Part shown: positions 25,114 to 43,107 of the stretch, piece by piece
How positions within the stretch are numbered: position 1 is the first letter of the stretch
Layout: each line of letters opens with the position of its first letter
Notes under the pieces: model-generated
Told to the model about the DNA's origin: nothing
The model's input: only the letters and a program-made list of their open reading frames with translations
The model's database searches: none
Source of the DNA: an uncultured Gammaproteobacteria bacterium
GTDB lineage: Bacteria > Patescibacteriota > Microgenomatia > Levybacterales > UBA12049
Length of the DNA stretch: 64,000 bases
Direction: 5' to 3'
Assembly (NCBI GenBank): GCA_964512695.1
Contig: CAZEJU010000001.1
Span: 7,803 to 71,802, forward strand
Position numbers and translations under genes: made by a program

Positions 25114-26868
25114 ATGGCTAAAGAAGGTGAAATAAAAGGCACATATCAGTTTAGTATAGATGGCCCTCAGCTGACCAGTGACGATATACAGAGGAAGTTC
25201 CCTGGTGTCAAAAATAATGGTCATCTCGGAAAGACTGGTGTAGTACTACATGATACAGCAATTCCTATCGCAGCTATCCGACATCCTCGACTTATACCTA
25301 CGCGGTTAGATGGAATTATACCTGTGTTTGGTGGCCCCCAAACACACAGTAAAATAGAGCATATCCGTATCCGACCAGCTGGTGGCTCAGAAGCGAAAAG
25401 AATAGCAAAAGCAGTCCGTGGAACAACCCCAACACTCGGACCAGAAGCAGAAGCATTTGTACATAACAGAAGAACAGGCAGACTTGTACCTACATTTAAA
25501 GGAAAACAAATTGAAACACAAAAAGCACTGAGAGAAGATGCACTTGGACATACGGGATCGCTTGAAGAACACATCGTAGCATCTGCTAAATTTACAGTTT
25601 TTAGAGCTAATCAAGAGCGCAGACGAGGACGTATCGCAGTTGAAACAAGTGTTCCTATAACCTATGGTGAAGGTAAAGATGCTCGAGATAGTGAAGGTCT
25701 CGCAGGTAGTGAAAATCCATATATTGTGGCTATGACACATCTGTTCCCTGAAAATATGCTCCCTACAGAGAAGCTTGATCCACAAGTTGCAAGCGTTTTA
25801 AATCAATACGCTCTTCGCCATGGGTTTGCGACTATTTCTGATATGACCAGCGCTCTCGGTCTTAACCGCACCTGGCACATGGCTGCAAGCCATCTGAGTC
25901 TTGGTCTACCGCAGGAACAACAACCAGATGGGAAATATATTACTTCTACTGAGATCGCGATAGGAGTTATGAATGTATTTATGAGTGACCTTAATATTTC
26001 GCATATGTTTACTCATGGAACACCTATGCTAGGCGGACAATTAGTAGATGTTCCAGCACGAAATCGTCAATCAGAACATGTGGCCTCAAATCAACCGTTA
26101 CGGGATGTACGACTTGGTGCATTTAAGCATATGTTAGGCACTGCTTATCCTGGCCCGCTTATCGCGAATGAAGAAGATCTCTATGATCGCTGGAGAAAGA
26201 TTGTTATTCCAGGGAAAGCCGCGACTGTAGATCGAGCATCGGCAATTAGTATAGCACCAAATGGAGAAATCTATGCCTCAATGCATGCACGGGCTCGTCT
26301 TCGTGTGGGAGGTGATCCCACAAAACAAACTGTACGAGTCGAATCAGTAGGAGATAGCGCTACACCTTCACGCTACGACTTAATAGCGCGTGACGCGTAT
26401 CTAGTAATGTTATGGAACGGTGCTATGGAGGCAATGGCAAAAGGAAAAACCCCACAAGATTTCTGGGGGGGAAATTATCCAGCAATAACTGACTGGAAAA
26501 AGCAGCAGGAAGCGACATTAGGATTTTCTGTTAATGGACCAGCGAATAGGGAAGCACATGTGCTGATTGAACAAAACCTGGGGTTTTTACGTGATATGAA
26601 AGCTCTCCAACCTACATTAGGTACGTACATCGATTATGTAACAGCACGTATTCGTAATTTTAGTAGACCGACAAAAGCACACACACTCGATGAGTATACA
26701 ACAGATCCATCAGGTAGCATAAGCGAGGTAATTCGACGCATGAAAGAAACCGGATATAAAGATGATGAAATCGTGCGAGCTATTGACACACATCAAACTG
26801 CAGTATCACGAAGAGTTGTTCAAGTTCATGGAGATTTTAAAGCGCTTCTACAAGATGTACAAAAGTAA
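25114..26868 (+). CDS. GCS2 / glutamine-synthetase-fold carboxylate-amine ligase-like protein, paralogue A (584 aa)
   Basis: Shares family landmarks with the other paralogues: GRIAVETSV (G-x-E-x-E-type strand), AASHLSLGLPQ, MHARARLRVGGDPTKQTVRVESVGDSA (R-x-R...E...D, compare HWxxRxx...xExRxxD of GCS2/YbdK). Confidence 0.55.
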   Translation: MAKEGEIKGTYQFSIDGPQLTSDDIQRKFPGVKNNGHLGKTGVVLHDTAIPIAAIRHPRLIPTRLDGIIPVFGGPQTHSKIEHIRIRPAGGSEAKRIAKAVRGTTPTLGPEAEAFVHNRRTGRLVPTFKGKQIETQKALREDALGHTGSLEEHIVASAKFTVFRANQERRRGRIAVETSVPITYGEGKDARDSEGLAGSENPYIVAMTHLFPENMLPTEKLDPQVASVLNQYALRHGFATISDMTSALGLNRTWHMAASHLSLGLPQEQQPDGKYITSTEIAIGVMNVFMSDLNISHMFTHGTPMLGGQLVDVPARNRQSEHVASNQPLRDVRLGAFKHMLGTAYPGPLIANEEDLYDRWRKIVIPGKAATVDRASAISIAPNGEIYASMHARARLRVGGDPTKQTVRVESVGDSATPSRYDLIARDAYLVMLWNGAMEAMAKGKTPQDFWGGNYPAITDWKKQQEATLGFSVNGPANREAHVLIEQNLGFLRDMKALQPTLGTYIDYVTARIRNFSRPTKAHTLDEYTTDPSGSISEVIRRMKETGYKDDEIVRAIDTHQTAVSRRVVQVHGDFKALLQDVQK

Positions 26869-27021
26869 CATTTGACAATATATTTGTAAATATAATTGAC
26901 AATATTACATATCTTTCAGTTAGTAATTATGAGTGCTGCCAATGCCTCTCAATACTTTTCGCACTCACTCACATCCTATAGTTGAATTTCTTCTCATATC
27001 TTTGTTACAATTTACCCCTAT

Positions 27022-28503
27022 ATGTCCCGAATACACGAATTACCAAGTATCCATACACTCTCTTCTACTGATGCTCAAAGATATTGGGATAAGTTACATC
27101 CAATAAAAGTTGTATCTCATGAGAGACCCCTGCAATACGGACATCCAGTTGAAATTCCTCCTAAACTCGCAGGAACTATTGGCAGATCAGCAAATCTCAT
27201 GGAAGAAATTGCGATAGATAGCATTATGCAACAAGGGGCCACTACATGGCTTGGAAATAATGCGGCTTCTTTCGCAGGTGATAGTCTTAACATACAAGAA
27301 ATCAACCACCAGCTCGAAGGTAGGCTTCTTCAAGGCTATCGATTACCTATTAGTTACGATGGAATGATAACAGTCTTTCGTGGAAGACCACATTATACAG
27401 TAGTGGAAGCACAATCTCTAGTTGCTCATGGCCCATGGATTCGGTCTATGCTTCAAGCAGCAGATAAAGATCCAGATGATCCATCATCATGGCAAGGGAA
27501 AGAAAATCCTACCCTCGTAGTTCAACAAATGAAAGACAATTTCGCGAAGGGTGAAGTTATAACAGTATTAGATACCACTCCACTTTCAGGTCCATTTATT
27601 CATGAACAAGTGGGTCTAGCGAAAGCATTAGGAACATCGGGAAGCGTGCCTATTTCTGCGCTTGATATCCAATTTAATCCTGAAATAGGTTATTTTCATT
27701 ACGGTTATGCAGTTGATACTAGAGGCTACCCTATACCAAATGGAAACGGCTTTTTAAGAACATCCGACCGAATACCAATCCGGCATGTGTTAAGCCGTAT
27801 GACGCAACCTGATCTGGATCATTTATACAATCTGGTCCGCGGTAACCCCCAACAAAGTGAACTTATACTCAAGTTCTTACGAGATGAAAAGATTAATTGG
27901 ATCTGGCATCCAGCATGGCAGTCCCTCATCGATAAATCGAGATTACCATATATCTGTAAAAAACTGGAAGAAAGACAAGAAAACGTAACACGCAATCAAT
28001 TTGTTCCGATTTTCGTAGCCGGTGAAACTCCACCCCTAGGAACGTATGTGCGTAAACCCGTAAGCAGCGTCCAAGGTGAAGGAGTAACAATTGTGCAAGT
28101 TAATGGCGTACCTCAACAAGTCGAAGAAGGCACAGTATACCAAAAGTATTTTTACCCGTATCCGTTTTCCATTCCCTTAGACGCAGAAATAGCACGGCAA
28201 TTTCCTGTAACACCCCATGCTCCCAGAAATGTCGCGTCTGGCTTCCAGGAACATTTCGGTTGGGGACAAACCACAACGCCTGCTAGTCTAGAATTATGTT
28301 ATATGGTGCCACCTTGGTGTAAAGGAGAACTTACGGGATATTTTATAGGGAGAGTAGCACCCAGGTATACAGGACCAGATTCAAGAAACATAACCCAAAC
28401 AAACCTCTCAAAAGCGCAAGCTGCGATGTACGAATATATCCGAGATCAGGATCATTGGAAAACACCCTTCGGCTTTTCCCCTGTAACTCTTCAAAAGACT
28501 TAA
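27022..28503 (+). CDS. ATP-grasp-like ligase (glutathionylspermidine-synthase-like flavour), 493 aa
   Basis: IWHPAWQSLIDKSRLPYI (compare the W..l.nKa.l..L motif of GspS-type pre-ATP-grasp proteins) and YVRKPVSSVQGEGVTIV (K-P-x-x-x-x-x-G-x-G-V ATP-grasp strand). Own TTGAAT-18-TACAAT promoter-like signal at 26982..27011. Confidence 0.45.
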   Translation: MSRIHELPSIHTLSSTDAQRYWDKLHPIKVVSHERPLQYGHPVEIPPKLAGTIGRSANLMEEIAIDSIMQQGATTWLGNNAASFAGDSLNIQEINHQLEGRLLQGYRLPISYDGMITVFRGRPHYTVVEAQSLVAHGPWIRSMLQAADKDPDDPSSWQGKENPTLVVQQMKDNFAKGEVITVLDTTPLSGPFIHEQVGLAKALGTSGSVPISALDIQFNPEIGYFHYGYAVDTRGYPIPNGNGFLRTSDRIPIRHVLSRMTQPDLDHLYNLVRGNPQQSELILKFLRDEKINWIWHPAWQSLIDKSRLPYICKKLEERQENVTRNQFVPIFVAGETPPLGTYVRKPVSSVQGEGVTIVQVNGVPQQVEEGTVYQKYFYPYPFSIPLDAEIARQFPVTPHAPRNVASGFQEHFGWGQTTTPASLELCYMVPPWCKGELTGYFIGRVAPRYTGPDSRNITQTNLSKAQAAMYEYIRDQDHWKTPFGFSPVTLQKT

Positions 28504-28528
28504 GCACACATACTCTTAAGTTTAAATA

Positions 28529-28675: not shown

Positions 28676-28696
28676 ATGTTTTAAAAGGAGAAATAT

Positions 28697-30556
28697 ATGA
28701 GTTCACATAAAGAATATGCAGGGCAAGCTGCTCTCAAATCCTTAGCTGAAAGATATATTAGAAGGTATGGCTTAAAAGCTGATTTTAATCCCGAAGAGAC
28801 AGGTGGAGTAATTTTCGCTCAAGACGGTACACCACTAAGGCAAGTCCGTGCTCCTTTCTGGAGAGCAGAAAAAGGTGCAAAGGGAACAGGCAGAAAAGAT
28901 ATGCCTAGAGTTTACACTGCTACAAATCCTGACCCGGATAAACCTAACTCAGGATTAGAATTAGAATTCCAAGCTTTCCATGCCATGACAGGAGAAATGG
29001 AACCAGTCATGGATGCAGACCACCCAGTACATCAGGGGTTATTGGAACACAATCGAAAAGCAAAAAATGGACACACTGAAAATAATGGAAATGGACTTGG
29101 AAACGGAAATGGGGTTAATGGATATGTTTTTGTAGAAGACGGCGCTGACTGGGACCATGACTTCCCAACTGGACCTAAAGAAGTAGGATTTAGCCCAGAG
29201 CTAACACGTCATACTTTGGAGGAAAACTTTCCTCCGAATGTAGATTCCGGAACACGAAACAGAGAGACATTATATGGTATTAGCACAGTTGTACAATTAG
29301 CAGAAGCAAATAACACACTTATCTCTCCGTTCTCGACTATACCGCATCGAGATATTACACAAATTGATACGAATCAACATCCATATGTCCAACGCATAGC
29401 GTTCGAACACATGGGTCCCGAAAAAGTTAAACACTTTACAGGTACTTCACTGCAAATTCACGTAGAAATCAAGGATTTAGAGTCAGCTTTACACGCTGCA
29501 AACCGTTGGCAGCTAGTTACACCTATTATGTATGCGGGAACACTTTCAGCACCTTTTATCGCAGGAGAAATAACACCCGATTTACAAGAACGGTATGGTC
29601 AAGTTCCCGACGTGGTTGGCGATCCACTAAAAGAAAGCACATTTGATACTATGACACAAGGACCCCATGAATCATATAGATATTATGGTAGATTAATAGG
29701 ATCACCTTCTGGAGGTGCAATGAGACAGCCTCTACCTGAAACATCTGAAGAATTTTGGTCTGCGGCTAATAATCTTCTAAAATCAGGAGAAAGTCCTTCC
29801 GTGGGTAGAGTAGCAGGACACCATGCAGATTTTCGTATTCGCCCTGACTTGGGACCGTATGGCACAATCGAGTTAGCAGTATTAGATACTGCCGGTGCGC
29901 GCATTCCAAATATCGTAGCCATTCAAGAATTCTCCAGAGCTTTGGGTTGGAAGTTACAGAGACAAGCAGGTAATTGGGAACAAATTATGGAAGATCCTCG
30001 TTTTAAATCGATATTCGGGCAAGCACCTTCTAAGGAAACATTCGAGACTGTTCACTGGAATACTATAGAGGTAGCAAAACATGGAAATAAGGCAATGATT
30101 ACTGGTATGGACGGAGAACAGCATTCTATAGCAGAGTTATGGAGTAAGTTAGTGGAATATGTACAAGAACCTATTGAAGAAACCGGTTATACTGGTTTAC
30201 CGGAAGGTATTATCGAGGTATTAGATAAAGCTTATCAAGACCCATCAGAACTATTTGATGTTTATAAAGACGAAAAAGGAGTTACTTCTGTCAAAGGATT
30301 CTATGAAACCGGAGTCGGAACTATGAGCCAGTGGGCCAGACAACGTGCAGAAGAGTTGAAAGCAAGAGGCTTAGCAGAAAAAGAAGCCATTATCGATACT
30401 ACACTTAATGTAGGCAAAAGCTTTCATGAACATGTAAAGTCAATGACACCCAAAGATCTTAATACTTTATATGTAAGCGCTAACAAGGATGTGGATAAAT
30501 CACCCCAATACAGCGCTAATGGTCAGAATCCATCATACCAAACCACTGCGTCCTAA
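28697..30556 (+). CDS. GCS2-fold carboxylate-amine ligase-like protein, paralogue B (619 aa)
   Basis: SGLELEFQAF, GTSLQIHVEIKD, GHHADFRIRPDLGPYGTIELAVLDTA (close to the GCS2 HWDVRP...T(I/V)E(V/L)RV.D signature). AAAGGAG SD 6 nt upstream. Confidence 0.65.
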   Translation: MSSHKEYAGQAALKSLAERYIRRYGLKADFNPEETGGVIFAQDGTPLRQVRAPFWRAEKGAKGTGRKDMPRVYTATNPDPDKPNSGLELEFQAFHAMTGEMEPVMDADHPVHQGLLEHNRKAKNGHTENNGNGLGNGNGVNGYVFVEDGADWDHDFPTGPKEVGFSPELTRHTLEENFPPNVDSGTRNRETLYGISTVVQLAEANNTLISPFSTIPHRDITQIDTNQHPYVQRIAFEHMGPEKVKHFTGTSLQIHVEIKDLESALHAANRWQLVTPIMYAGTLSAPFIAGEITPDLQERYGQVPDVVGDPLKESTFDTMTQGPHESYRYYGRLIGSPSGGAMRQPLPETSEEFWSAANNLLKSGESPSVGRVAGHHADFRIRPDLGPYGTIELAVLDTAGARIPNIVAIQEFSRALGWKLQRQAGNWEQIMEDPRFKSIFGQAPSKETFETVHWNTIEVAKHGNKAMITGMDGEQHSIAELWSKLVEYVQEPIEETGYTGLPEGIIEVLDKAYQDPSELFDVYKDEKGVTSVKGFYETGVGTMSQWARQRAEELKARGLAEKEAIIDTTLNVGKSFHEHVKSMTPKDLNTLYVSANKDVDKSPQYSANGQNPSYQTTAS

Positions 30557-30590: not shown

Positions 30591-31676
30591 ATGATTCAAC
30601 AAGAAAGGCTTCTAAAAACATTCTTCGATCTTGTTTCAATCGATAGTCCTACAGGTGAAGAAGAACGCATTCGTAACGAACTCTCAAATCGTTTGAAAAA
30701 ACTTGGCGCTGAAACAGTGGAAAAAGATACCTATGGTAACCTCATAGCGAAATTCCATGGTGAAGGTGAACCGCTCATGATTAACTGCCATATGGACACT
30801 GTAGAGCCCGGTAGAGGCATAGTACCAATTATGAAAGGTGATAGAGTAGAAACCGACGGGAAGACAATTCTAGCGGGTGATGCAAAGGCAGGTTTAGCGA
30901 TTATCCTCGAAGCCTTAACTTCACTAAAAGAAGAAAATAAAAAACATGTACCTATCGAAATCGTCTTTACTGTAGAGGAGGAAACTGGACTTTATGGAGC
31001 TGTTAACCTCGACTATTCAAAAGTCTCCGCAAAAAAAGGATTTGTTTTTGATGGTTCAAAAGATCCTTGTACCTTAACCACATCAGCACCGGGATATTAT
31101 AGAGTCGATGTTACAATCATAGGAAGAGCGGCTCATGCGGGAGCCGAACCTGAAAAAGGTATTTCAGCTATTAAAATCGCTTCTGATATTATTACGAAGC
31201 TCGAGGTAGGCAGAATTGATGAAGAAACTACGGCAAACGTCGGTATTATAGAAGGCGGAAGCGCCCGGAATGCAGTACCAGAAAAAGCACATTTTAAGGC
31301 AGAAATTCGAAGTAGAAAGCTAGAAAAGCTTGAAAAACATGCAGGTCATTTCCAAGAAGTTTTTGAGGAAGCGATGAAGAAACATCCTGAAGCGAAAATA
31401 GAGATAGACATGCATTTAGAATTTAATCCATATATTTTCGATGAAAACCATCATGTTATTCAGCTTGCGAGTAAAGCGTTAAGCGAACTAGGACAAACAC
31501 CGAAACTTGCACCTTCGAATGGAGGATCCGATGTCAATATTTTTATTTCACACGATATAGAAACAGTGGCTGTAGGAATTGGCGATTATAATGCTCATAC
31601 AACCCGCGAATACGTCGTCATATCTGAAATAGTGTTAGGAGCTAGACTCTGCGAAAAACTCCTTGAGGCGAAGTAA
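30591..31676 (+). CDS. M20-family metallopeptidase (peptidase T / tripeptidase-like)
   Basis: SPTGEE, CHMDTVEPG, LAGDAKAGLA, EEETGLYGA, RAAHAGAEPEKGISA: M20 metal-ligand motifs. 34 nt after paralogue B, so likely the same operon. Confidence 0.75.
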   Translation: MIQQERLLKTFFDLVSIDSPTGEEERIRNELSNRLKKLGAETVEKDTYGNLIAKFHGEGEPLMINCHMDTVEPGRGIVPIMKGDRVETDGKTILAGDAKAGLAIILEALTSLKEENKKHVPIEIVFTVEEETGLYGAVNLDYSKVSAKKGFVFDGSKDPCTLTTSAPGYYRVDVTIIGRAAHAGAEPEKGISAIKIASDIITKLEVGRIDEETTANVGIIEGGSARNAVPEKAHFKAEIRSRKLEKLEKHAGHFQEVFEEAMKKHPEAKIEIDMHLEFNPYIFDENHHVIQLASKALSELGQTPKLAPSNGGSDVNIFISHDIETVAVGIGDYNAHTTREYVVISEIVLGARLCEKLLEAK

Positions 31677-31759
31677 ATTGGTATATTGCTAAACTGCTAA
31701 TTGTTACGTGAGAGTAACCATACAACAATACCCATATCAATAAATTTTCGCTACAAAAA

Positions 31760-32107
31760 TTGACACGTCATTAACCTCATGGTAGAATTACTATAACATA
31801 CGAATAACAGCGTTGATCCAGTATGGATGGGACTGGGGATTCTCCTTCATTAAAGTTACGCAAGGAGAGCGCTGGGTCTAATCAACCCCGGAGGCGAAAC
31901 CGTAAAAAGATCAGCAACATGTGTCATAGCTGCAGATAAGCACTGATTAAAAGCTGATTCTCGCTGATATAGAGCATGTCATGAATGAGAAGTCCTCCCA
32001 CGCCAAAGCTCCGGAGGATAAAACAAGGTGGCACCGTCCTTAAATAAACGTGGGACCCTTGTAAATAACTACAAAGTAATTTTGTGGTTGTTTACAAGGG
32101 TTTTTTT
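31760..32107 (+). promoter_or_regulatory. Promoter plus T-box-like leader (antiterminator bulge UGGC; specifier not resolved)
   Basis: TTGACA(31760)-17-TAGAAT. ACAAGG-UGGCACC-GUCC..GGAC-CCUUGU (32023..32062) is a T-box-type antiterminator with a 7-nt bulge. Its 3' strand is shared with a 14-bp terminator CCCUUGUAAAUAAC/GUUGUUUACAAGGG + U7 (32056..32107). Confidence 0.6.
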
Positions 32108-32108
32108 A

Positions 32109-33269
32109 ATGGTAAAAACTATGAAAGAAGGAGTTATTATACAAGTTGATCCGAGAATACCAGAGCCATATATAACATATATCCGGCAACGAAATGGGAA
32201 TGTCGGCAGAGATATAGCAGATCACCTTGGCCTACCCTATGTAGGAGACAGTCAGGGAGTACAACGTGCAGCTGATTATTATCCTGTACTTGCCAGAACT
32301 GTCACCAGAGAACATGCAAGAGTATTAGGTGCAGAAAATACAAGAGATTTCTATGGTCTTGCAGTTGAAGATTTAAATGTTGTGGGTAAATCTATACTCC
32401 ATCCTTCTATAAGCAGAAGACATCCTTTATTTCATAGAGAACAATTCGCACGAAAAGTCTTAGGTCAAACCCTTCCTGGTATAACCGGTTTCTCTAAAGA
32501 AGATTTATTAGCAGGGTATGAAAATGGTTACGCTGGATCACTGGATCATGCTTTAGATTACGAGCAGTATGGATTACGTGTTAAACTTCCAAATGAATCC
32601 GACGGCGTAGGACAATTTACTATACAAAGCAAGGATGATCTGGTTACTCTTCTAGAAGCTATTGAGGATAAAGATATCCACGAACAAGGACTGGTTCTGG
32701 AAGCTGATGTACAGAAACCTGAGACTATATCAGTCGGATTCGCGAGAATCGGTGATGAACAATTAAGTTTCATAGCCCAACAAAAAGATGCACGTGTGTT
32801 AGTAGATCATAAGGGCAAAACAATAGAGCAGAATAGATATGGTGGGGCATACGTCGTTGTGGCAAAAGGCCCTTTACAGTTACTATGCCAAGCCACGGAA
32901 GCAACTTCGCGTGAGAGATCTGCTGTAGAAAAAACACTGGCGTTTCATGAAGCCTATCAACGCATCTATGATCCTTTAGCTTCGAGATTAAGTTTCGATG
33001 TCATTTTCGGAGAAGGGAAAAACGGTCTCCCACTTGCAGGAATAAGTGACATTACTGGTAGGCTAGGTGGAACGTGTCCAGCACTCATGCAAGCTGCTGA
33101 AGAGTTCAGGAAAAACCCTTCTATTCAAATGGTAGGAACAGAAGTATCTCTTAATTATACTCCCCATGTACGATTTCCCTATGAAGATGAAGCTAAGGTG
33201 TATGTAGACCACCCAACACTCAGACTTACAGCAAGAGTAAACTCAAAACACAGAAGACTCGCAGCATAG
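32109..33269 (+). CDS. ATP-grasp-like protein (386 aa from the ATG at 32109)
   Basis: GLRVKLPNESDGVGQFTIQSKDDLVTLLE.. and ..GLVLEADVQKPETISVGFARIG.. fit ATP-grasp central-domain strands. I rejected the ORF-track start (32028) because it overlaps the leader terminator. Confidence 0.4.
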   Translation: MVKTMKEGVIIQVDPRIPEPYITYIRQRNGNVGRDIADHLGLPYVGDSQGVQRAADYYPVLARTVTREHARVLGAENTRDFYGLAVEDLNVVGKSILHPSISRRHPLFHREQFARKVLGQTLPGITGFSKEDLLAGYENGYAGSLDHALDYEQYGLRVKLPNESDGVGQFTIQSKDDLVTLLEAIEDKDIHEQGLVLEADVQKPETISVGFARIGDEQLSFIAQQKDARVLVDHKGKTIEQNRYGGAYVVVAKGPLQLLCQATEATSRERSAVEKTLAFHEAYQRIYDPLASRLSFDVIFGEGKNGLPLAGISDITGRLGGTCPALMQAAEEFRKNPSIQMVGTEVSLNYTPHVRFPYEDEAKVYVDHPTLRLTARVNSKHRRLAA

Positions 33270-33435: not shown

Positions 33436-35136
33436 ATGGCAATGACTGAACAAGACATACTAAAAGGTACAATGAACGGCCGAGTTGATTCAGGTTTAAA
33501 GGCAACTGATAACACAGCAGTACCTTTAGGTGAACAATCTCATGGCGGCATAGTCCGAAATACCGATGGACTATGGTGGCTACCTGCCTCACCACATCGC
33601 GGAAGGGGTTTCGAATGGCAAGACTCAAAGGATCCTAGATATAACGCAACACATTTAAGTGAAGTTGGCTACCACCCTGAACCTCTAGAACCACAGAGAA
33701 CCGTAGAAGTATTAGCTGAACATTTACAAGAAAAAGTTGAAGGAAGAATTCCGGAAACAGAAACCCATGGAGTTGAAGTTGAAGGGACTACCTATGATCG
33801 AGAAGGCAATCTCTTAGCAATTCCTGTCGATCAGAAAACAAATCCCGAATTATTAGCTTCTACACATGAAGAAGCCACAAAACTGGAAAACGGACAGTAC
33901 CCGAGAAAACCATTTGAAATAGCTCGAGCAGTAGCCAGTGCAACCCAGCGGGGTATCGCAATCGCTGAAAATCATAGCGGAATACTTGTCCTCACAGAAG
34001 TACCAGAAGGTGGAACATTTCATGATGCTGAAAACAGTACATTTCCATATATAGTACGTCAACAAGGAAGAATTCGAAGACACGCATTAGCACACCTTGA
34101 TGAGATACCTGAAGAAACATGGGCTCTCTATCGACGTTACGGCGTAGATATTCGAGAACTACTGGAATCTAATAGACCGCTCAATTGGCCTACTCATGGA
34201 TTGCATCATCATGCCGGTGCGCCACAAATAGAAGGATTAGTCGACCCGAGAGCCGCACTGGTTATGGGAAAAATGCGTCAAACACTTTTTGCAAAATTAC
34301 TGCAATACCCAGCATTTAATAGCAGTAGATTATATGAAAAAGAAACTGATCTCCGCGGAGTCCGATCTGTCGCAAAACACGCGCTTGCTACAACAGTTAA
34401 TAATGATTTACCTGATAGTGCTGAAGAGCTAATGTGGGATGTGCAACGGGCAATGAGAGAGGGAGAAATCGCTACGCCTTCACGATATCCTTATAAAGGC
34501 CAACACGATGTCGTTCGATTTAGGATGGATGGAAAACATAAAACTGTCGAGTCTATTAAAGATCCTATGACACCTGACCTATTAACAGCGCTTCATCTCG
34601 TGTTCGGCAATCAACTCCTGGATACCATCGGCCAGCAAGCTCTCGTACAAGTAGGTGGAGATGAAAGCAAAGTTATGGGTTATTTACAATCTATACATCC
34701 TGAGCTTTTTGCCACATTGCCTTCATTAGGTCCTGAGTCATCACATAGTGCAGATATGCAGTTTAATAAAGCAGGGTATCTAGGAACATTCCGCGGGAAA
34801 ACTTATGCTGAGCTTATAAGAGATGCACGTGCTGTCGTGGAAGGGGTAGGCAAACATTATACAGCACTTGAGACACAAGCTAAAATTGTAAATCACGTAC
34901 TAGGATACCAAACAGATATTCCTCATCCACAGACTGATCTAGCAACATTTATGGGAATAAAAAATGGAGTTTACCAACCAAATAGTATGAGAGCAGGAAT
35001 TCTAACGGATTATAAAACGGGTATTCCTACAAATGAACTGTTAGTTGTCCAGGCTGAAGCAACGAAATTACAAGCTCAAGCTTTAGCACAAGTGAGAGAT
35101 GATAAAGATCTTCTCGAAGTGTATGGATTACAGTAA
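33436..35136 (+). CDS. GCS2-fold carboxylate-amine ligase-like protein, paralogue C (566 aa)
   Basis: HGVEVEGTTY, THGLHHHAGAP, GQHDVVRFRMDGKHKTVESIKDPM. GGAGG SD 6 nt upstream. Confidence 0.55.
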   Translation: MAMTEQDILKGTMNGRVDSGLKATDNTAVPLGEQSHGGIVRNTDGLWWLPASPHRGRGFEWQDSKDPRYNATHLSEVGYHPEPLEPQRTVEVLAEHLQEKVEGRIPETETHGVEVEGTTYDREGNLLAIPVDQKTNPELLASTHEEATKLENGQYPRKPFEIARAVASATQRGIAIAENHSGILVLTEVPEGGTFHDAENSTFPYIVRQQGRIRRHALAHLDEIPEETWALYRRYGVDIRELLESNRPLNWPTHGLHHHAGAPQIEGLVDPRAALVMGKMRQTLFAKLLQYPAFNSSRLYEKETDLRGVRSVAKHALATTVNNDLPDSAEELMWDVQRAMREGEIATPSRYPYKGQHDVVRFRMDGKHKTVESIKDPMTPDLLTALHLVFGNQLLDTIGQQALVQVGGDESKVMGYLQSIHPELFATLPSLGPESSHSADMQFNKAGYLGTFRGKTYAELIRDARAVVEGVGKHYTALETQAKIVNHVLGYQTDIPHPQTDLATFMGIKNGVYQPNSMRAGILTDYKTGIPTNELLVVQAEATKLQAQALAQVRDDKDLLEVYGLQ

Positions 35137-35139: not shown

Positions 35140-35982
35140 TTATTCTCCTGACCAGGACATGGCATTCATAGCTATTTGAGAATCCATATCCAAATTCTTC
35201 AAAGTAAGTGGCAGAAAAGATACATTACTTAATAAGACAGCTCGTTCTAAGGGGGTATTTTCCAGAATAGGAGCATACAGTCGTCCTTCAATACCATCTC
35301 GGACTTCCTTCACATTAACAGAATCAGTAACACCAACCACAGGTACTGTAATTGAGTGTTTTTCTATCTGTAAATATTTCGAGGGCCAGATAAGATCTGG
35401 ATTTTCACTATCTGAAACGAAAAACTGTCTACCATTCGCAGGAACTACTAAACCTGATACAGCAGGTCTGGTATCAAAACTCTGGCCTTCATCACCCCAT
35501 AACATCTCACGAATGTCCTGGTGTACGTAACCTCTTCCACCTGAAAGGAGCGCAGCGCCATTCGCGTTGGAATAGAGCAATCCGAATGCTATACCTATCT
35601 CATCTAATTCTATGGCAGCAGGGGATGCAGCACGCTCTGAAAGTGATAAAGAAGCAGTACGCATTTGTTGCATCTGACTTATAGCACCTCTATGCTTCTG
35701 CATAACCATTTCTCTAACAGATTCACGTTCTTTATTAAAAGCTGACCATGTAGCAGGGAGAACGTCTATATATGCAGTTATACCCAATTCTTCGCGAATT
35801 GTTTTCTCTAATGCAGCCACCCTATCCATAGCGATCAATCGCTCACGGTCAGCGTGGATACTAGCGCCAATATCCTTACCTGCCAGAGCTTTTAAATAAG
35901 CAGCATGATACTCAGCATATAACGTGCGTAGTTGTTGGGTGTAGATTTGCAGCAATCTCGAATTTTCTCTACGTTCTATCAT
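35140..35982 (-). CDS. Hypothetical protein (280 aa) embedded in the ligase cluster
   Basis: Long ORF convergent with paralogue C (stops 3 nt apart), with cluster-like GC-rich codon usage. No recognised family. Confidence 0.45.
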   Translation of the reverse strand: MIERRENSRLLQIYTQQLRTLYAEYHAAYLKALAGKDIGASIHADRERLIAMDRVAALEKTIREELGITAYIDVLPATWSAFNKERESVREMVMQKHRGAISQMQQMRTASLSLSERAASPAAIELDEIGIAFGLLYSNANGAALLSGGRGYVHQDIREMLWGDEGQSFDTRPAVSGLVVPANGRQFFVSDSENPDLIWPSKYLQIEKHSITVPVVGVTDSVNVKEVRDGIEGRLYAPILENTPLERAVLLSNVSFLPLTLKNLDMDSQIAMNAMSWSGE

Positions 35983-36100
35983 GGGTAATATTATATATTA
36001 TAGGATCTAATTCACACAAGCATACGGGTCGGTATTTTCCAGCACAGTTATTTATTAAGCAGTTTGTAATATTAGGAAGACTATTGTAGTTAGTAAAGTG

Positions 36101-36174
36101 TGGGGCCAAGTGGACTTGAACCACTGACCTTTTCAATGTCAATGAAACGCTCTAGCCAACTGAGCTATGGCCCC
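36101..36174 (-). tRNA. tRNA-Val (anticodon GAC)
   Basis: GGGGCCA/UGGCCCC acceptor, A73, D-arm GCUCAGUUGGCUAGAGC, anticodon loop UUGACAU, T-loop UUCAAGU. Confidence 0.85.
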
Positions 36175-36306: not shown

Positions 36307-36900
36307 TTGGGGCAACAAATGACAAGATCTGAAGCATATACAATGCTTACAAAATATCTCCATAATAAAAACCTTATTAAGCATTGTCTTGCTGCTGAAG
36401 CGACAATGAAAGCTTTATATAAACGCCTGACTCCACAGCATGAACAAAACCCAGCAGATGAGGAAAAATGGGGGATTGTGGGACTCATGCATGATGCGGA
36501 TTATGAAATTGCACAACAGACAAACCAGCTTGATAAACATGGATTGTTACTCTTTGAAAAAGAACAGGGAACAATACCAGATGATATCGCGCATGCTATT
36601 AAATCTCACAATTTTTTAAACACGAGAGTAATGCCAGAGAATGCCATGGATTGGGCTATAGAAACATGTGATCAACTAACAGGGCTTATCGTCGCAGCCG
36701 CGCTCATCCACCCTGATAGAAAATTATCCTCACTAGATACACAATTCGTATTAAACCGATTTCACGAAAAATCATTTGCGAAGGGAGCAAAACGTGAGGC
36801 GATTATTCTCGCTGAAAAAAAGCTAGGGTTACAGCTAGAAGAATTCATAACAGTTACATTAAAGGCAATGCAAGGAATTAGTACAGAATTGGGATTGTAA
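36307..36900 (+). CDS. HD-domain phosphohydrolase
   Basis: ..HCLAAEATMKAL.. and GLMHDADYE (H..HD motif). About 197 aa, HDIG-like. Confidence 0.65.
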   Translation: MGQQMTRSEAYTMLTKYLHNKNLIKHCLAAEATMKALYKRLTPQHEQNPADEEKWGIVGLMHDADYEIAQQTNQLDKHGLLLFEKEQGTIPDDIAHAIKSHNFLNTRVMPENAMDWAIETCDQLTGLIVAAALIHPDRKLSSLDTQFVLNRFHEKSFAKGAKREAIILAEKKLGLQLEEFITVTLKAMQGISTELGL

Positions 36901-36930: not shown

Positions 36931-37152
36931 ATGTCTTCCGAAAAATATCATCATGTACATAAAGGAAAGATTGAGATTTTCATCAATAATTTTACAGGCG
37001 GAATTGCCTGGGGATTAGGAGCAAGTGTAGGTGTATCAATCCTATTTACGATTCTCGGTTTTATAGCAACTCAAGCAAATCTCGTTCCCTATATAGGAAC
37101 ATTTGTTTCACAAATTATCGACTTCGTGTTAAAACATAACAAACATTTTTAA
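36931..37152 (+). CDS. Small membrane protein
   Basis: 73-aa ORF with two hydrophobic helices (GGIAWGLGASVGVSILFTILGFIA..). Confidence 0.4.
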   Translation: MSSEKYHHVHKGKIEIFINNFTGGIAWGLGASVGVSILFTILGFIATQANLVPYIGTFVSQIIDFVLKHNKHF

Positions 37153-37296: not shown

Positions 37297-38289
37297 ATGA
37301 GAAACTTATTAGAATTAGGAATTTTCGAAACATACGGAAATGGTGGAGGAGCAATTACCAAAGATAGAGTATCTCCTCCTATTTATCCAGTAGATGCTAA
37401 TTTAGGTGAATGGAGGATACTAGCAACTGATCATGAAAGAGAATTCCCGGGCGAGCATCTCGAACGTGCTTTTGAAGTGATAAAGCAATGGCAGGAAGTA
37501 TTTCCTCGGGAAGATACCTGGATTAATCGTGCGTATGGTATTCCGTCACCGATTATTAAACTCGATGCAACAATTACTAATAATGAATTACAGGTGTATG
37601 AAGTAGAAGATAGACCAGCAGGAATGGGTTATAGCGAATTAATAAATCCTGACTTACGAACAAATTTTGCTGATATTGTATCTACTTGGCCAGATTTCCG
37701 AGTCGTCGTTTCTCCTCAAAGATCTGGAAATGACGATCATTTATGGGCAAAGCCAGCAGAAGCAGATTGGCATGGTCTAGTTCTCGTCCGGGCAGAACCG
37801 TCTGAAGAAGAATTCCATGCATTACAGCGAAGATCCATAAGTACTCTGCTTACAGAAGGAGACAAATCGTATGGTGAAAAAATGGGTTTATGGAAAAGAG
37901 TTCATACAGCAGATGAGATAGATTTTTCACAAGGTTTTGTCGTCAAGCCCACCCAAGGAAGCAAAGGGAATGGTGTGTATGTATCTTTACCGAAACAATA
38001 CATGAAAGAACATGGGATCGACCCAGGTAGAAATGGCGTAGCTACTGCAGGGAAAATACGAGGTGTAATCGATACTGCAGCAGCAAATGGAGGAGTCTTC
38101 GTACAACAATATCATCCTCCTATGGAAACAGGTATCCCGACCCATCCCTGGGCAGTAAACCGGTTATTCTTCGGGTATGATATGCAAAATGGAGAATGGA
38201 GATATATAGGGGGAACATGGAATGCTCGAAATAATTTGAAAATTCATGGAGCTAGTGATACATTAACTGGCCCGTTAAAAACGGTATAA
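37297..38289 (+). CDS. ATP-grasp-like ligase (330 aa)
   Basis: GFVVKPTQGSKGNGVYVSL (ATP-grasp K-P-x-x-G-S-x-G-x-G-V strand), ..VFVQQYHPP... Start set at the ATG abutting the terminator U-tract. Confidence 0.5.
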   Translation: MRNLLELGIFETYGNGGGAITKDRVSPPIYPVDANLGEWRILATDHEREFPGEHLERAFEVIKQWQEVFPREDTWINRAYGIPSPIIKLDATITNNELQVYEVEDRPAGMGYSELINPDLRTNFADIVSTWPDFRVVVSPQRSGNDDHLWAKPAEADWHGLVLVRAEPSEEEFHALQRRSISTLLTEGDKSYGEKMGLWKRVHTADEIDFSQGFVVKPTQGSKGNGVYVSLPKQYMKEHGIDPGRNGVATAGKIRGVIDTAAANGGVFVQQYHPPMETGIPTHPWAVNRLFFGYDMQNGEWRYIGGTWNARNNLKIHGASDTLTGPLKTV

Positions 38290-38615: not shown

Positions 38616-39899
38616 ATGAAAGAAGGACTAAAAGTATTATCACACTCATCTATAGAGGAATATCTATTCGATACTGATGTCGAAGACCGATATTATATTC
38701 CGTGGCGTGCAGCCGCAGAAGCAGCAGCAAGAATCGAACTAGGACAACAAGTTTTGACAATCCTTCCAAAACGTGAAGCTTTTAACGAATACCTCACCCT
38801 TTTACAAATGAAATTACTGGGAGGAAGAAGTATTCCAACGCTGTTTACACCTGATGAAGATTATCTTATGGATACTGATATTAAAAAATATCTTATGGAT
38901 ACTCTTCGTGGCAGATTTAACAGAAGTACCACTATTCATCCCTATCAAGCAACACCTGAATTTTATGATTGGGCGGGGGAGTTAGAACAGAAAGGCGTTA
39001 AAATTTACGCAGATAGAAAACGCAAAGACTTACGTGACTGGTGGGGACATAAAGGAGCATATCATCGATGGATAGATGATCTCGATACTCCCACTCAATT
39101 TGAAGGATTACATTTACCAATACCTCGAGGATACGTGGCTCAAAACCATGGAGAATTACTTGTAGCGAAAAAACTTCTACCAACTGACACTGTTGTGGCA
39201 AAACCAATTTTCGGAGCTGGTGGATTTCAAATAGAGTTCTTAGACGACGATAATATCGATACATATGAATGGCCTACCGACCCCACAACGGAAAAACCCA
39301 TGCCAGTTGCTGTACAAGAAAGACTAAGAATTGGTCGAGATGAATTCGGCGAACGTGTTTTTTCCTACCAGTTTGAGGGCCCACAACCAATGGGACGATT
39401 AACACGACAAATTATGGATCAGGAAACTGGGAAAGTCTGGAGTGGGAATAGAGTACCAGCAGATGTTACACCTGAGTTTGAACGAAGAGCAAAGGATGTA
39501 GTTCATACTTTAGTCATGAAAACAAAACCAAAAGGAGACGGGGGAGTCGATATAGCAGATGTAGATGGAGAACCAGTAATCATCGAAGTAAACGGAGGAA
39601 GGCCAACTGGCGCACATATGCCGAAACGATTTCAACAAGCCTTCGCGCCTGAAGCTCCACATTTCGTATTTCAGAAAGTAGAACCAAACGGATATTCACC
39701 ATTCGATATTTGGGATAGACTCGAAGGAGGAAACTTGCCTCGCACGAATGAAACTCTAGTATTTCAGCGTGAAAGACAACGCGGGGTTTTTCCATTAGTT
39801 TGGTTACCGAACTCTTGGGGAATGCTTGCAAGCTTCGGAGGATCATTCGAAGAAGCAAATAATCAGTTACTCGCAGCTCGTGATAGAATAGGCGTATGA
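38616..39899 (+). CDS. ATP-grasp-like ligase (427 aa)
   Basis: VVAKPIFGAGGFQIEFL, ..GGVDIADVDGEPVIIEVNGGRPTG.. (ATP-grasp C-terminal E-x-N region). AGGAGG SD. Confidence 0.5.
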   Translation: MKEGLKVLSHSSIEEYLFDTDVEDRYYIPWRAAAEAAARIELGQQVLTILPKREAFNEYLTLLQMKLLGGRSIPTLFTPDEDYLMDTDIKKYLMDTLRGRFNRSTTIHPYQATPEFYDWAGELEQKGVKIYADRKRKDLRDWWGHKGAYHRWIDDLDTPTQFEGLHLPIPRGYVAQNHGELLVAKKLLPTDTVVAKPIFGAGGFQIEFLDDDNIDTYEWPTDPTTEKPMPVAVQERLRIGRDEFGERVFSYQFEGPQPMGRLTRQIMDQETGKVWSGNRVPADVTPEFERRAKDVVHTLVMKTKPKGDGGVDIADVDGEPVIIEVNGGRPTGAHMPKRFQQAFAPEAPHFVFQKVEPNGYSPFDIWDRLEGGNLPRTNETLVFQRERQRGVFPLVWLPNSWGMLASFGGSFEEANNQLLAARDRIGV

Positions 39900-40966
39900 C
39901 TGAGAAAAGGGTAGTACAAATATTTTTCGATTTAGTAAAAATTGACAGCCCTTCTGGACATGAAGAGAACGTTTTAGAGTATATAGAAGCATATTGCAAA
40001 AAACTCTCACTAAATACACAGAGGGATTCTTATGGAAACCTCATCGTTAAAAAAGAAGGAGTAGGTGAACCACTACTTCTCTGTTCACATGCCGATACAG
40101 TAGAACCAGGGAAAAATATTCAACCACGAATAGAGAACGGAATTATAAAAAGCGATGGTACGACGATACTTGGTGCTGATAATAAATCGTCTATTGCAGC
40201 GATTCTCGAGGCTGTGAAACAATTAGTTGAAGAAAAAAAACACCATAGGCCTCTAGAGCTTGTGTTTACAAAATCTGAAGAAGTTGCTAGCTGGGGAGCA
40301 GTATATCTGGACTACAAACAACTTCAAGCAAAAGAAGGATATACGATAGATAACGCAAATCCTGTAGGAACAATTGTCTACGCGTCTCCTTTTTACTATC
40401 GTTTCGATATTACAGTATTCGGTAAAGATGCCCATGCTTCAAGACCGCATGAAGGAATTCATGCTTTAAAAATCGCTGCAAGCGCCATTCATAAAATAAA
40501 ACTTGGAAAAATTGATACAAATACACTTGCCAATATCGGCATGATCCAATCAGGCCATGTACGCAACACAATTCCAGGTTCAGTAGTGCTTATGGGAGAA
40601 GTACGAAGCTATTCCGATGAGAAAGCTCAAAGGTACTTAAACAAAATTATTGATACATTTAGAAAAACTGCAGAAAAAACGGGAGGATCTATAACGTACG
40701 AAACGCTGAAAGAAAATGCTGGGTATATATATAAAACAAATGATCCCTTTGTAAAAAAAACGATGCAGATTATGAAAAAGATTGGAGTAGAAACGAACTT
40801 AATTAAAACTCTGGGCTGTGCCGATGCAAATGTGATCCAAGAGCATGGAATTAAAATGCTCGACCTGGGCGACGGCTCACGCAGAGCGCATACACTAAAG
40901 GAGTCAATACCGGTAGCACAGTTACAAAGAGTCGTTGAGCTAGTATTAGCTCTTGCTGGAGCATAA
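39896..40966 (+). CDS. M20-family metallopeptidase (second copy, peptidase T-like)
   Basis: SPSGHE, SHADTVEPG, LGADNKSSIA, KDAHASRPHEGIHA. ATGA start/stop overlap with the upstream ATP-grasp gene. Paralogue of 30591..31676. Confidence 0.75.
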   Translation: MTEKRVVQIFFDLVKIDSPSGHEENVLEYIEAYCKKLSLNTQRDSYGNLIVKKEGVGEPLLLCSHADTVEPGKNIQPRIENGIIKSDGTTILGADNKSSIAAILEAVKQLVEEKKHHRPLELVFTKSEEVASWGAVYLDYKQLQAKEGYTIDNANPVGTIVYASPFYYRFDITVFGKDAHASRPHEGIHALKIAASAIHKIKLGKIDTNTLANIGMIQSGHVRNTIPGSVVLMGEVRSYSDEKAQRYLNKIIDTFRKTAEKTGGSITYETLKENAGYIYKTNDPFVKKTMQIMKKIGVETNLIKTLGCADANVIQEHGIKMLDLGDGSRRAHTLKESIPVAQLQRVVELVLALAGA

Positions 40967-41204: not shown

Positions 41205-41322
41205 ATTGGGGAGAACACGTATCCGTCAGCTGAGGGATACCACGATAGAATCCCATGGATTATTGCATGGAATCCTATCGCCCCGGTGTACGTCAGGACT
41301 GAAAGCTGACCACAAATAACAT

Positions 41323-43107
41323 ATGACAAACGAACAAGAACTAAAAATAGGAGGACAAAAATCAGCGACGAAAGTTGATTTCGCTCATGCTGAGCATCCT
41401 TTAACCCATGCACGTCTTTATGAAGCAGTAGAAGAACGACGTGGTACCGTAGGTCCTGTAGGAGATGTTCCCAGAGCATATATAAGGGACTCTGCAACTG
41501 CGGCAATTATAGTAAGCACACCTTCAAAAGAGGTGGTTGCTGCTGTTCGATCACCTCTATGGATTCCTAGTGGTGTACGAAATGGAAGAGTAGAATTTGG
41601 TGGAAGACCAGATAAAGATCATATCGAATTTTCTTACTTACGTGAAACTGATTGGGAGTATGTAAAAGAATCTGCGAGGAAAAGATTAGACGCACTTAAA
41701 AAAGCCACAAAACTTAACGAATTTGTTGCTGAGCATGGAGGCTATCTCGGTATAGGAACAGAGCCGGAAGCATTTCTCCTTCATGAAGATGGCAGTGTCG
41801 TACAGATAAACGCTGGAGAGTCATTTTTAGGCCAGAGAGAAGACGCTCTGCCACCGATAGCGACACCCAGAGAGTATGCCCGCGCACGAGCGGAACTTAT
41901 TCAAAATCGAAGACAGCAATTACAGGCTGGTCAAATTGCCTTCGACGGCTCAGTTCGACCTACGGGGAAGATGAGCGAAACAAGAATAACCCAAGAAGGT
42001 GATGAAGCAATATATAATGTAGCTATCACGCAAGCGCTCCATACACGATACACCCATTGTGCAGATCCATTAACACGACAAATCATGGATCAGCTTGCTA
42101 AAACAGAAAACTATAGAGATTTTGACGAAATCTATAATCATGCTTCAACGATAACATACTGGGGTCCTCCCTCTGCATCGCATGCAGCTATAGGAATGCA
42201 TCAAAGACGCGAAAATGGGACAACCTTTGTACCAGAATGGGAAGCAGTAGCTCATGCAGATGTCATAAATAGCGATTTCGCAACTGCTGATGAACTACTG
42301 ATGATGTCAACGCCAGTCATATTCGGAGAACAACCTCAAGTTTTACATAAAGGTACATGGAGAAAACCACGCGACTATCGTCATTTTATGCGACATGTCG
42401 TTGACACTACCTATCCAGCACCTTTTGTCGGCTCGCCAGAAGCATTACGAGCAAATGTTACCGACAGTATACTCTCCGGCAGATCGCACACACTTGATAG
42501 ATCTGCATATACTGCAGATGTACATGGTTTATTAGTCCCTAACTATCATGGAAGAGTACGGATTAGACAAAAGGTTGATGTTACTCATAAAGGAGAAATT
42601 AAACAATCATGCCGTATAGAAGAAACAGGATGTTCACAGTCCGCATCTTTACCTGATGAATTGGCAAGAAATGCACTTATGCAGCTTAGAGCTGTTGCTG
42701 TCGACGAAGCCCTCGCAGCAGGTATGCATCCCTCTGAATTCTATAAAGAGAAATATCCGCATATGACAACTTGGCAAAAGCAGCAAGATATCGTACTCCA
42801 TGCAAATCTCTATGGTTTCCGACATCCTTTACCATCTGCTGTGATAATGGAAAATATTAGGCTTGTACGAGATATCGGTAAGAGATATCCTGTACTCGGT
42901 CTTCAAGCCGTACTCGCAGAAACACGCTTGAGAAATTTATTTGATGATCCAGCACGCTCTTTAGAAGTTTATGAACAAAAACCTATTGGTCCATTTAGCG
43001 AAGTTCTCCAGAATGAATTACATAATGGTACTTCACCTGTAGAACTCGCTCAAAAAGTAGCCGCTTACCAGGATACAGTAGCGGAAAAGATATTAAGAGT
43101 TCCATAG
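41323..43107 (+). CDS. GCS2-fold carboxylate-amine ligase-like protein, paralogue D (594 aa)
   Basis: YLGIGTEPEAFLLHEDG, SASHAAIGMHQ, NYHGRVRIRQKV...SCRIEETGCSQSA. Lies between the Thr attenuator and thrS. Confidence 0.55.
   Translation: MTNEQELKIGGQKSATKVDFAHAEHPLTHARLYEAVEERRGTVGPVGDVPRAYIRDSATAAIIVSTPSKEVVAAVRSPLWIPSGVRNGRVEFGGRPDKDHIEFSYLRETDWEYVKESARKRLDALKKATKLNEFVAEHGGYLGIGTEPEAFLLHEDGSVVQINAGESFLGQREDALPPIATPREYARARAELIQNRRQQLQAGQIAFDGSVRPTGKMSETRITQEGDEAIYNVAITQALHTRYTHCADPLTRQIMDQLAKTENYRDFDEIYNHASTITYWGPPSASHAAIGMHQRRENGTTFVPEWEAVAHADVINSDFATADELLMMSTPVIFGEQPQVLHKGTWRKPRDYRHFMRHVVDTTYPAPFVGSPEALRANVTDSILSGRSHTLDRSAYTADVHGLLVPNYHGRVRIRQKVDVTHKGEIKQSCRIEETGCSQSASLPDELARNALMQLRAVAVDEALAAGMHPSEFYKEKYPHMTTWQKQQDIVLHANLYGFRHPLPSAVIMENIRLVRDIGKRYPVLGLQAVLAETRLRNLFDDPARSLEVYEQKPIGPFSEVLQNELHNGTSPVELAQKVAAYQDTVAEKILRVP

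Follow-up and report, generated by a model that had tools for sequence, protein, structure and literature searches.

Classical attenuators of the pheL, thrL and ilvL/leuL types consist of a short open reading frame (ORF) with a codon run, the stop codon of which lies in a segment that pairs with the 5' arm of a terminator placed before the gene. Operons of multiple amidoligases combine an ATP-grasp ligase with a COOH-NH2 ligase (Burroughs, Zhang and Aravind 2015, PMC4431377), and gene clusters resembling the Rhodobacter capsulatus gene transfer agent (RcGTA) exceed their genomes in G+C through codon positions 1 and 2, which has been attributed to cheaper proteins under nutrient limitation (Kogay, Wolf, Koonin and Zhaxybayeva 2020, PMC7360931). 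Here we describe an array of genes at positions 25114-43107 of a 64-kb, AT-rich stretch of contig CAZEJU010000001.1 (the window; overall G+C 37.8%). The name 'ligase cluster' given to it in the original prediction was apt, as sequence and fold comparisons predict four ligases of the GCL/YbdK fold (A1, A2, E and C), four ATP-grasp ligases (B, D, G and H) and two PepT-like, tripeptidase-type M20 enzymes (M1 and M2); the array also contains a 280-aa protein (F) and an HD-domain protein. Its raised G+C had been ascribed either to recent acquisition of the whole array or to a distinct amino acid composition. The reading that we favor, with a probability of roughly 0.8, is that the excess reflects a family-bound amino acid composition of the ligases on host-like silent sites, and that the array is a mosaic rather than a recent import.

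The array was richer in G+C than its surroundings (41.09% in 25114-43107 versus 36.71% in 1-25113 and 36.29% in 43108-64000). The excess of about 4.5 points is much smaller than hand counts of 52-55% had suggested: the arithmetic of these counts, made on five 60-nt lines, was right (51.7, 55.0, 41.7, 43.3 and 33.3%), but both lines taken inside the array turned out to be unrepresentative local peaks. The highest value reached by a 500-nt window within the cluster was 46.2%. A two-change-point likelihood scan placed the steps at 24,800 and 44,900 with a log-likelihood ratio of 60.7, the optimum being flat across 23.8-24.8 kb on the left and 44.7-44.9 kb on the right; the highest ratio in 100 permutations of 200-nt blocks was 21.7. 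The step is genuine and far above the chance level. Its left edge lies at about 24.8 kb, as had been predicted, but the right edge, expected at about 43.1 kb, is soft (43.1-44.9 kb), because thrS, the right neighbor, is intermediate in G+C. The array does not form a single plateau, since G+C dips to 35.6-37.6% at 36,001-37,500, a segment covering a tRNA-Val gene, the HD gene and a small membrane ORF.

A regional rise in G+C is evidence of foreign DNA only if it is visible at silent sites. Splitting G+C by codon position, together with the study of the same families in other genomes, decided the question here. Mann-Whitney tests were used to set 12 ORFs of the cluster against 39 from the flanks. 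The G+C at the first codon position (GC1) was 0.564 in the cluster and 0.472 in the flanks (p = 1e-6) and that at the second (GC2) 0.398 and 0.346 (p = 1e-3), whereas the third position (GC3) did not differ (0.281 versus 0.272, p = 0.45). Four-fold sites (0.273 in the cluster, 0.262 in the flanks) and spacers (0.365 and 0.347) were likewise host-like. The synonymous-codon distance between cluster and flanks amounted to 0.0428, compared with 0.0473 ± 0.0076 for random sets of 12 genes, 71.5% of which differed at least as much. The excess is therefore confined to codon positions 1 and 2, and the impression that the cluster genes use more G/C-ending codons was mistaken.

The residues behind this excess could be identified. 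In the ligase genes, G+C at positions 1 and 2 averaged 0.499 versus 0.420 in the flanks, and of this difference (0.078), the scarcity of Lys, Ile and Phe accounted for 20%, 12% and 6%, respectively, and the abundance of Gly, Pro, Ala and Arg for 15%, 14%, 11% and 10%. Nine of the 12 genes raise the G+C, namely those of the eight ligases and of F; in the encoded proteins Gly, Pro, Ala and Arg are abundant, and Lys, Ile, Phe, Asn and Tyr scarce. The summed content of Gly, Ala, Arg and Pro was 0.27-0.31 in these nine proteins, 0.21-0.24 in M1, M2 and the HD protein, and 0.218 in the median flank protein; the corresponding R/(R+K) ratios were 0.48-0.69, 0.27-0.32 and 0.34. The tetranucleotide comparison that had been proposed did reveal a deviation, the z-score profiles of cluster and flanks correlating at r of about 0.50 as opposed to 0.70 between flanks. 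Yet when the cluster proteins were back-translated with flank codon usage, r fell to 0.357, compared with 0.51 for flank proteins treated alike. Protein sequence alone thus reproduces the deficit, and the real cluster DNA is nearer to the host in tetranucleotides than its back-translation.

We considered the possibility that the whole 18-kb array had recently been acquired as one island. The G+C step that begins at about 24.8 kb, and the lack of the array at the thrS locus of the closest relative, are in line with such an event. However, host-like values were obtained for GC3, four-fold sites, codon usage and spacers, the composition of M1, M2 and HD resembles that of the flanks, and the history of the locus points the other way. 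ThrRS, IF3, L20, PheS, PheT and other products of the flanks indicate a bacterial housekeeping context, and the best match of thrS is found in a metagenome-assembled genome (MAG) of Candidatus Levyibacteriota (ThrRS 89% identical), followed by other Patescibacteria; judged by these matches, the organism is a Levyibacteriota MAG of the Candidate Phyla Radiation (CPR). Among relatives (individual loci are numbered with the prefix L), the HD gene lies just upstream of thrS in 33 of 80 thrS loci, tRNA-Val(gac) lies beside HD in 10 of 11 thrS loci checked, and a 73-aa ORF accompanies HD in all four relatives in which the spacer was read (L002, L003, L012 and L029). In the window this native core, with its flank-like composition, sits in the middle of the cluster. 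The array therefore consists of two blocks, 25114-35982 and 37203-43107. Orthologues of H and M2 occupy the space between HD and thrS in L005 (61% and 53% identity, ThrRS 64%), and orthologues of M1 are present at the same locus in L012 and L029 (62% and 56%, ThrRS 61% and 56%), which corresponds to housekeeping-like divergence. Finally, A2 is placed between a threonine leader and thrS, and is in this respect wired into host regulation. Acquisition as one recent island, as put forward in the original prediction, is for these reasons highly improbable.

Parts of the array recur in other places. At the thrS site of L003 there is an A2-like gene (35% identity); the module of the left block is found again in L082, as DUF3182, A1-like, 486-aa protein, C-like and M20 genes; and a core of A2-like, E-like and M20 genes recurs in L001, L086, L088/L089 and L091. 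A search of genome contigs with A2 returned no relative. Neither an integrase nor a transposase was detected in the window, and the block edges carried no tRNA-derived direct repeat and no copy of the tRNA-Val 3' end, the repeat search giving terminator-like hairpins and short chance matches only.

The tRNA-Val site was observed in several arrangements. Its orientation varies, being minus in the window, L029 and L014 but plus in most relatives. L085 has a C-like/E-like/M20 module directly against tRNA-Val, with a phage-type integrase behind it, and in L002 an rve transposase lies beside tRNA-Val. Such variety is suggestive of a hot spot of recombination.

To see where the composition belongs, A-, C- and E-family genes were compared with unrelated neighbors in 13 metagenomic and genomic loci, the hosts of which had a G+C of 30-56% (about 11-12 independent cases, as L088 and L089 are near-duplicates); the metagenome scan for the A family was run with a 9-sequence alignment. 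GC2 was higher than in the neighbors in 13 of 13 loci and GC1 in 12 of 13, but GC3 in only 3 of 13; in the other 10 it was below that of the neighbors (e.g. 0.230 versus 0.396 in L094), opposite to GC1 and GC2. The median R/(R+K) of 59 A-family homologues was 0.60, as opposed to 0.14-0.35 for the M20 genes of the same operons, which are Lys-rich in all loci (0.28-0.32 in the window). In L099, for instance, GC2 was 0.413 in a G-like gene and 0.295 in the adjacent M20 gene. The window itself provides a control 13 kb outside the cluster, a GCS2-family ligase gene at 56332-57711, in which GC1, GC2 and GC3 were 0.561, 0.387 and 0.278 and R/(R+K) 0.61; the adjoining TyrRS gene had values of 0.496, 0.318, 0.256 and 0.41. 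From the same excess in other hosts, the unbiased M20 genes and this control, we conclude that the excess at GC1 and GC2 belongs to the protein families.

The explanation that emerges runs as follows. The ligases and F, with much Gly, Pro, Ala and Arg and little Lys, Ile, Phe, Asn and Tyr, raise the G+C at codon positions 1 and 2; this composition is a property of the protein families, kept in hosts of 30-56% G+C. The suggestion of an amino acid composition regime was in that sense well founded, the shift away from Lys, Ile and Phe and toward Gly, Pro, Ala and Arg traveling with the ligase families. The array appears to be a mosaic around a native backbone of tRNA-Val, HD, small ORF and thrS, in a region that differs in ligase and peptidase content among Levyibacteriota relatives. 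Its ligase and peptidase genes would be long resident, subject to piecemeal gain and loss, and selection on proteins made during amino acid shortage may contribute to their composition.

Several observations weigh against this explanation, and some of them would suit an old transfer from a GC-richer donor, after which the silent sites would have drifted to an AT-rich state while positions 1 and 2 kept the protein composition of the donor. GC1 and GC2 of A2 (0.597 and 0.427) and E (0.614 and 0.406) are nearly equal to those of their homologues in L001, a 56%-GC contig (0.618 and 0.442; 0.640 and 0.432). The bias is not absolute, R/(R+K) being 0.39 in the A2-like gene of L003 and 0.28-0.33 in some family members, and it is weaker in some AT-rich hosts. 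The array is accessory and patchy: in L002, the closest relative, the array is absent, with HD and the small ORF immediately before thrS, the genes upstream being a GSP-synthetase-like ligase, an M20 gene, an APH-like gene, two uncharacterised genes and the rve transposase. Gene gain or loss at the thrS site is thus real. Moreover, host-like was judged against the 39 flank genes of the 64-kb window only. The tRNA gene in the locus, and a transposase (L002) or integrase (L085) nearby in relatives, would also accord with transfer. On the other side, the excess of GC1 and GC2 over neighbors is seen in all or nearly all of the 13 loci, including the GC-rich one, and the GC3 of these genes is more often below than above that of their neighbors. 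The co-operonic M20 genes are never biased, although a donor signature would mark the whole cassette, and the window lacks the mobility genes and edge repeats that a transfer might leave. An old transfer fits the data less well than family-bound composition does, and we regard it as unlikely, though less so than a recent island.

The members of the array were assigned as follows, all being on the plus strand unless stated otherwise. A1 (25114..26868) and A2 (41323..43107) are 26% identical to each other and belong to a family without Pfam model that has only 90 representatives in 1.84 billion proteins; E (33436..35136) is a remote paralogue of this family (hhalign 98.3%, E = 1.4e-14), for which the GCL/YbdK fold is presumed from that relationship. 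A1, A2 and E had no Pfam or NCBIfam match, including PF04107 and TIGR02050, and 0 of 61 family members matched Pfam; their predicted fold is nevertheless of the glutamine-synthetase-like ligase type. The residues G145, E147, E149, E166, E173, R393, R413 and E433 are invariant in the A family and are candidates for metal- and ATP-binding positions of the active site. C (28697..30556) appears to be a divergent GCS2/YbdK-family carboxylate-amine ligase (NCBIfam TIGR02050 4.5e-6, below the cut-off), and its homologues carry PF04107. As C and the A family proved unrelated in an hhalign comparison, a common fold is proposed for A and E alone, and C rests on the weak GCS2 matches.

Among the candidate ATP-grasp ligases, B (27022..28503) is a probable acid-amine ligase similar to YgiC and GspS (PDB YgiC E = 1e-4; weak Pfam GSP_synth), the weakest assignment of the four. 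D (32109..33269) is a DUF3182 protein (Pfam, 8e-48), a family that has been placed in the ATP-grasp fold (PMC4431377); its start is probably ATG 32109 and not GTG 32028 as in the ORF list. G (37297..38289) has no Pfam model for its family and would be a ligase of the GspS/YjfC/glutathione-synthetase type, its AlphaFold2 (AF2) structure (predicted local distance difference test, pLDDT, 90.5) retrieving YjfC, GspS and glutathione synthetase in Foldseek with a probability of 1.00; its start was corrected to 37297, the database copy having 330 aa. H (38616..39899) matches ATP-grasp_3 (PF02655) with 37.9 bits versus a cut-off of 23.2. The peptidases M1 (30591..31676), which is Lys-rich, and M2 (39896..40966), both flank-like in composition, were recognized through Pfam and TIGR01883 (297.2 and 297.6 bits, above the cut-off of 274.25). 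F (35140..35982, minus strand) is Arg-rich like the ligases and joins them by composition; Pfam and NCBIfam searches gave no family match, and it showed no similarity to the minus-strand genes behind E-like genes elsewhere. The native core consists of tRNA-Val(gac) (36100..36174, minus strand), found beside HD and thrS in relatives, the HD-domain gene (36307..36900) and the membrane ORF of 73 aa (36931..37152), located between HD and thrS in relatives. No Pup-like, LysW-like or RiPP-like (ribosomally synthesized and post-translationally modified peptide) small ORF was found in the spacers of the array.

The left neighbor of the array (23887..24684) encodes an S-adenosylmethionine (SAM) hydroxide adenosyltransferase-like protein (Pfam SAM_HAT_C; 0.7% Met), the start of which is probably ATG 23887, past a terminator, the ORF list giving GTG 23827. 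On the right, thrS (43198..44937) begins 90 nt past A2 and has no leader of its own. The ligases and M20 peptidases might make or break small gamma-glutamyl-type peptides. As a separate observation, a G-like ligase gene in L100 (5022-6891) lies directly downstream of a gene for a deacylase of the AstE/AspA family, without M20; ligase and amidohydrolase are thus paired once more, here with a hydrolase of another family.

Many of these genes are preceded by what appear to be attenuators. Eight strong terminators, each a hairpin with a T-run, were found directly before start codons in 23.8-41.2 kb, compared with at most one per 20-kb flank. Four leader ORFs with a clear codon run were each followed by a terminator: a Met-rich one, MHYIKVENMMAMMMTS, upstream of the SAM-hydrolase gene (ORF 23771-23821, hairpin 23851-23870), an Ile/Val/Leu one, MQHTFNSIIVVLLVTH, upstream of C (28570-28620, terminator 28650-28669), a Phe one, MIRQAVNFFFFFTPLAGR, upstream of E (33315-33371, terminator 33398-33416), and a Thr one, MSKSVFGTTTTTTLS, upstream of A2 (41107-41154, start possibly 41086, terminator 41181-41200). 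Two weaker cases are MKSTFLVCCVTTLL upstream of G (37203-37247, terminator 37274-37290), with a run that may be of Cys, and MNIMNNNGAVKKNLS upstream of H (38391-38438, hairpins 38428-38445 and 38469-38486), with a run that may be of Asn/Lys and an ambiguous architecture. A promoter-like site was present upstream in 5 of these 6 leader ORFs, the ATG lying 10-14 nt past the -10 box in each; it was a perfect TTGACA-17-TATAAT promoter (33279-33307) ahead of the Phe leader, and no promoter was predicted upstream of the A2 leader. Since promoter-like sites were not enriched overall (45 versus 52.6 expected), these assignments rest on position relative to the leader ORFs.

In silico folds constrained by a ribosome on the run indicated that the segment with the leader stop codon pairs with the 5' arm of the terminator in 6 of 7 leaders, H failing. 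The antiterminator of the A2 leader captures 9 of the 9 nt of this arm, and that of the SAM-hydrolase leader forms with the ribosome placed on the Met run. In the SAM-hydrolase, C and A2 leaders, it is the run itself that otherwise sequesters the stop-codon segment, as in the classical four-segment design. Conservation was also observed. A Phe run precedes the E-like gene at 5 of 5 loci, one of them in the 56%-GC host (it was seen in L001, L086, L088 and L091), and Ile/Leu/Val-rich leaders lie ahead of A2-like or C-like genes in 10 loci, with terminator stems that differ in a compensatory way; here per-sequence folds were used instead of RNAalifold, which missed the terminators in the leader alignment because the loop registers differ. 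In silico, these leaders thus have the codon run and terminator (Met, Ile/Leu/Val, Phe and Thr), the alternative pairing and the conservation of attenuators. Given the amino acid codon runs, a shortage of particular charged tRNAs probably turns on the ligase and peptidase genes. A Met leader on a SAM enzyme that releases methionine makes biological sense, which supports the idea that the leaders report amino acid shortage. A limited literature search found no report of leader-peptide attenuators in Patescibacteria.

Other upstream regions are of a different kind. Those of A1 (24685..25113; 429 nt, 41% G+C, promoter-like site 24795-24823, terminator 25083-25101) and D (31677..32108; 432 nt, promoter-like site 31760-31788, 20-bp perfect hairpin with T-run 32055-32101) fold stably and are relatively GC-rich. 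Neither contains a codon-run ORF or an Rfam match, searches of A1 and of the whole cluster giving chance-level matches only and tRNAs alone reaching the gathering threshold. They could be riboswitch-like elements of a new type. Two side observations concern the leaders. A 40-nt stretch, 83% identical, is common to the SAM-hydrolase (23835-23874) and A2 (41165-41204) leaders; it comprises a CCTCC...GGAGG terminator hairpin, the 3' arm of which is a Shine-Dalgarno-like GGAGG. In L099 (5758-5990), two tandem attenuators with aromatic/Cys-rich leaders (MKINLCKFWHYTFLNGR; ...KTCQYWFNYHFLKKGG...) precede a G-like ligase and M20.

The leaders bear on another explanation of the composition, in which proteins made under scarcity would have shed the scarce or costly Phe, Ile, Lys, Tyr and Asn for the cheap Gly, Ala and Pro. 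Because the cheap residues have GC-rich codons, G+C would rise as a consequence. The leader peptides suggest induction under amino acid shortage, and depletion of the cognate residue was found in 4 of 5 testable cases: E, with its Phe leader, has the lowest Phe among the ligases (2.1% versus 4.5% in the flanks), C the lowest Ile+Leu+Val (17.0% versus 23.2%), H the lowest Asn (2.8%), and the SAM hydrolase 0.7% Met versus 2.2%. A2, however, is not poor in Thr, and Val showed no depletion. The ligases were also cheaper to synthesize (23.3 versus 24.4 ~P per residue, p = 0.006), with costs after Akashi and Gojobori (2002), but the difference is small and the costs are doubtful in an auxotrophic CPR organism. 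The RcGTA-like clusters offer a precedent, their GC1 and GC2 excess being tied to cheap proteins under nutrient limitation (PMC7360931). Against this stand the M20 peptidases of the same operons, which are unbiased, and the tiny sample sizes. Such an adaptive economy, which would complement family-bound composition and not replace it, is plausible as a contributor, though we give it less than even odds.

Two genes of the GCL fold, A2 and the GCS2-family gene, are situated between an amino acid sensor and an aminoacyl-tRNA synthetase gene. In L002, thrS has its own Thr leader, MKKLFKINTTTFF, with a terminator (9859-9946). The window differs: here the Thr leader stands before A2, and thrS, downstream of A2, has none, as though A2 were part of the thrS regulatory unit. 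The GCS2-family gene is preceded by a T-box-like leader (55853-56072 and downstream; unit 55853..57711, plus strand) and directly followed by tyrS (57724-58920). The leader matches T-box RF00230 with 58.2 bits, below the gathering threshold of 93 (E = 4e-12 in a 585-nt search); UAC (Tyr) lies in its aligned specifier region, and GGTGGTACCACGG was seen by eye further downstream. This GCS2-family gene is missing from L002. A general link of A-family operons to aminoacyl-tRNA synthetases was also considered and was rejected, as the neighbors elsewhere were not consistently such genes, with only CysRS upstream in L093.

Taken together, the array and the GCS2-tyrS unit might constitute an amino acid shortage response that has not been described before. 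Its units would be gated by amino acid-specific leaders or a T-box, two of them being co-transcribed with the cognate aminoacyl-tRNA synthetase gene, and it would serve salvage or buffering through small gamma-glutamyl-type peptides in an auxotrophic CPR bacterium; the Lys/Ile/Phe-poor composition would then be an adaptation to shortage. We offer this proposal tentatively, as one that may well prove wrong.

Two further features of the window lie outside the array. An ORF for a GIY-YIG endonuclease (10799-11188, minus strand) adjoins tRNA-Gln (region 10720-11188), and its 5' region overlaps an interrupted second tRNA copy, made of 21-nt and 33-nt segments that are 100% identical and separated by a 31-nt insert, which suggests a mobile-element insertion with tRNA duplication. 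An archaeal-type phosphoenolpyruvate carboxylase is encoded at 21555-23063 (PEPcase_2 E = 5e-134), and the loci retrieved from relatives contain no equivalent gene.

The cluster reveals a very rare GCL-fold enzyme family without Pfam model, and predicted attenuators in a CPR genome, on ligases, peptidases and a SAM hydrolase, provide a testable lead on how an auxotroph responds to amino acid shortage. How the locus relates to known systems differs from one aspect to another. With RcGTA-like clusters it has in common a gene cluster with an amino acid-driven excess of GC1 and GC2. The latter, however, are phage-derived particles of GC-rich alphaproteobacteria, whereas metabolic ligases in an AT-rich CPR genome are concerned here, and the bias has been traced to the protein family across hosts. 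Like tRNA-associated genomic islands, the array has a variable content by a tRNA gene, is patchy among relatives and has mobility genes at the equivalent site in relatives; unlike them, it shows neither an integrase or transposase in the window, nor flanking tRNA repeats, nor deviating silent sites.

The leaders have the same layout as classical attenuators. They differ from the pheL, thrL and ilvL types in that they would control ligases, peptidases and a SAM hydrolase instead of biosynthetic operons, and in that the leader ATG lies so close to the -10 box. As to the enzymes, A1, A2 and E exceed YbdK (PF04107) by about 200 residues in length and share about 11-13% identity with it. GCL-fold ligases standing side by side with ATP-grasp ligases similar to GspS and glutathione synthetase, together with a peptidase, recall amidoligase operons and the two-step logic of GshA and GshB; in contrast to amidoligase operons, the array, which combines eight ligases, yielded no carrier protein, precursor peptide or tailoring enzyme, and most of its units have their own amino acid-specific leader. 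As a G+C anomaly, the array is ordinary and explained; the array itself is a variation on known amidoligase operons.

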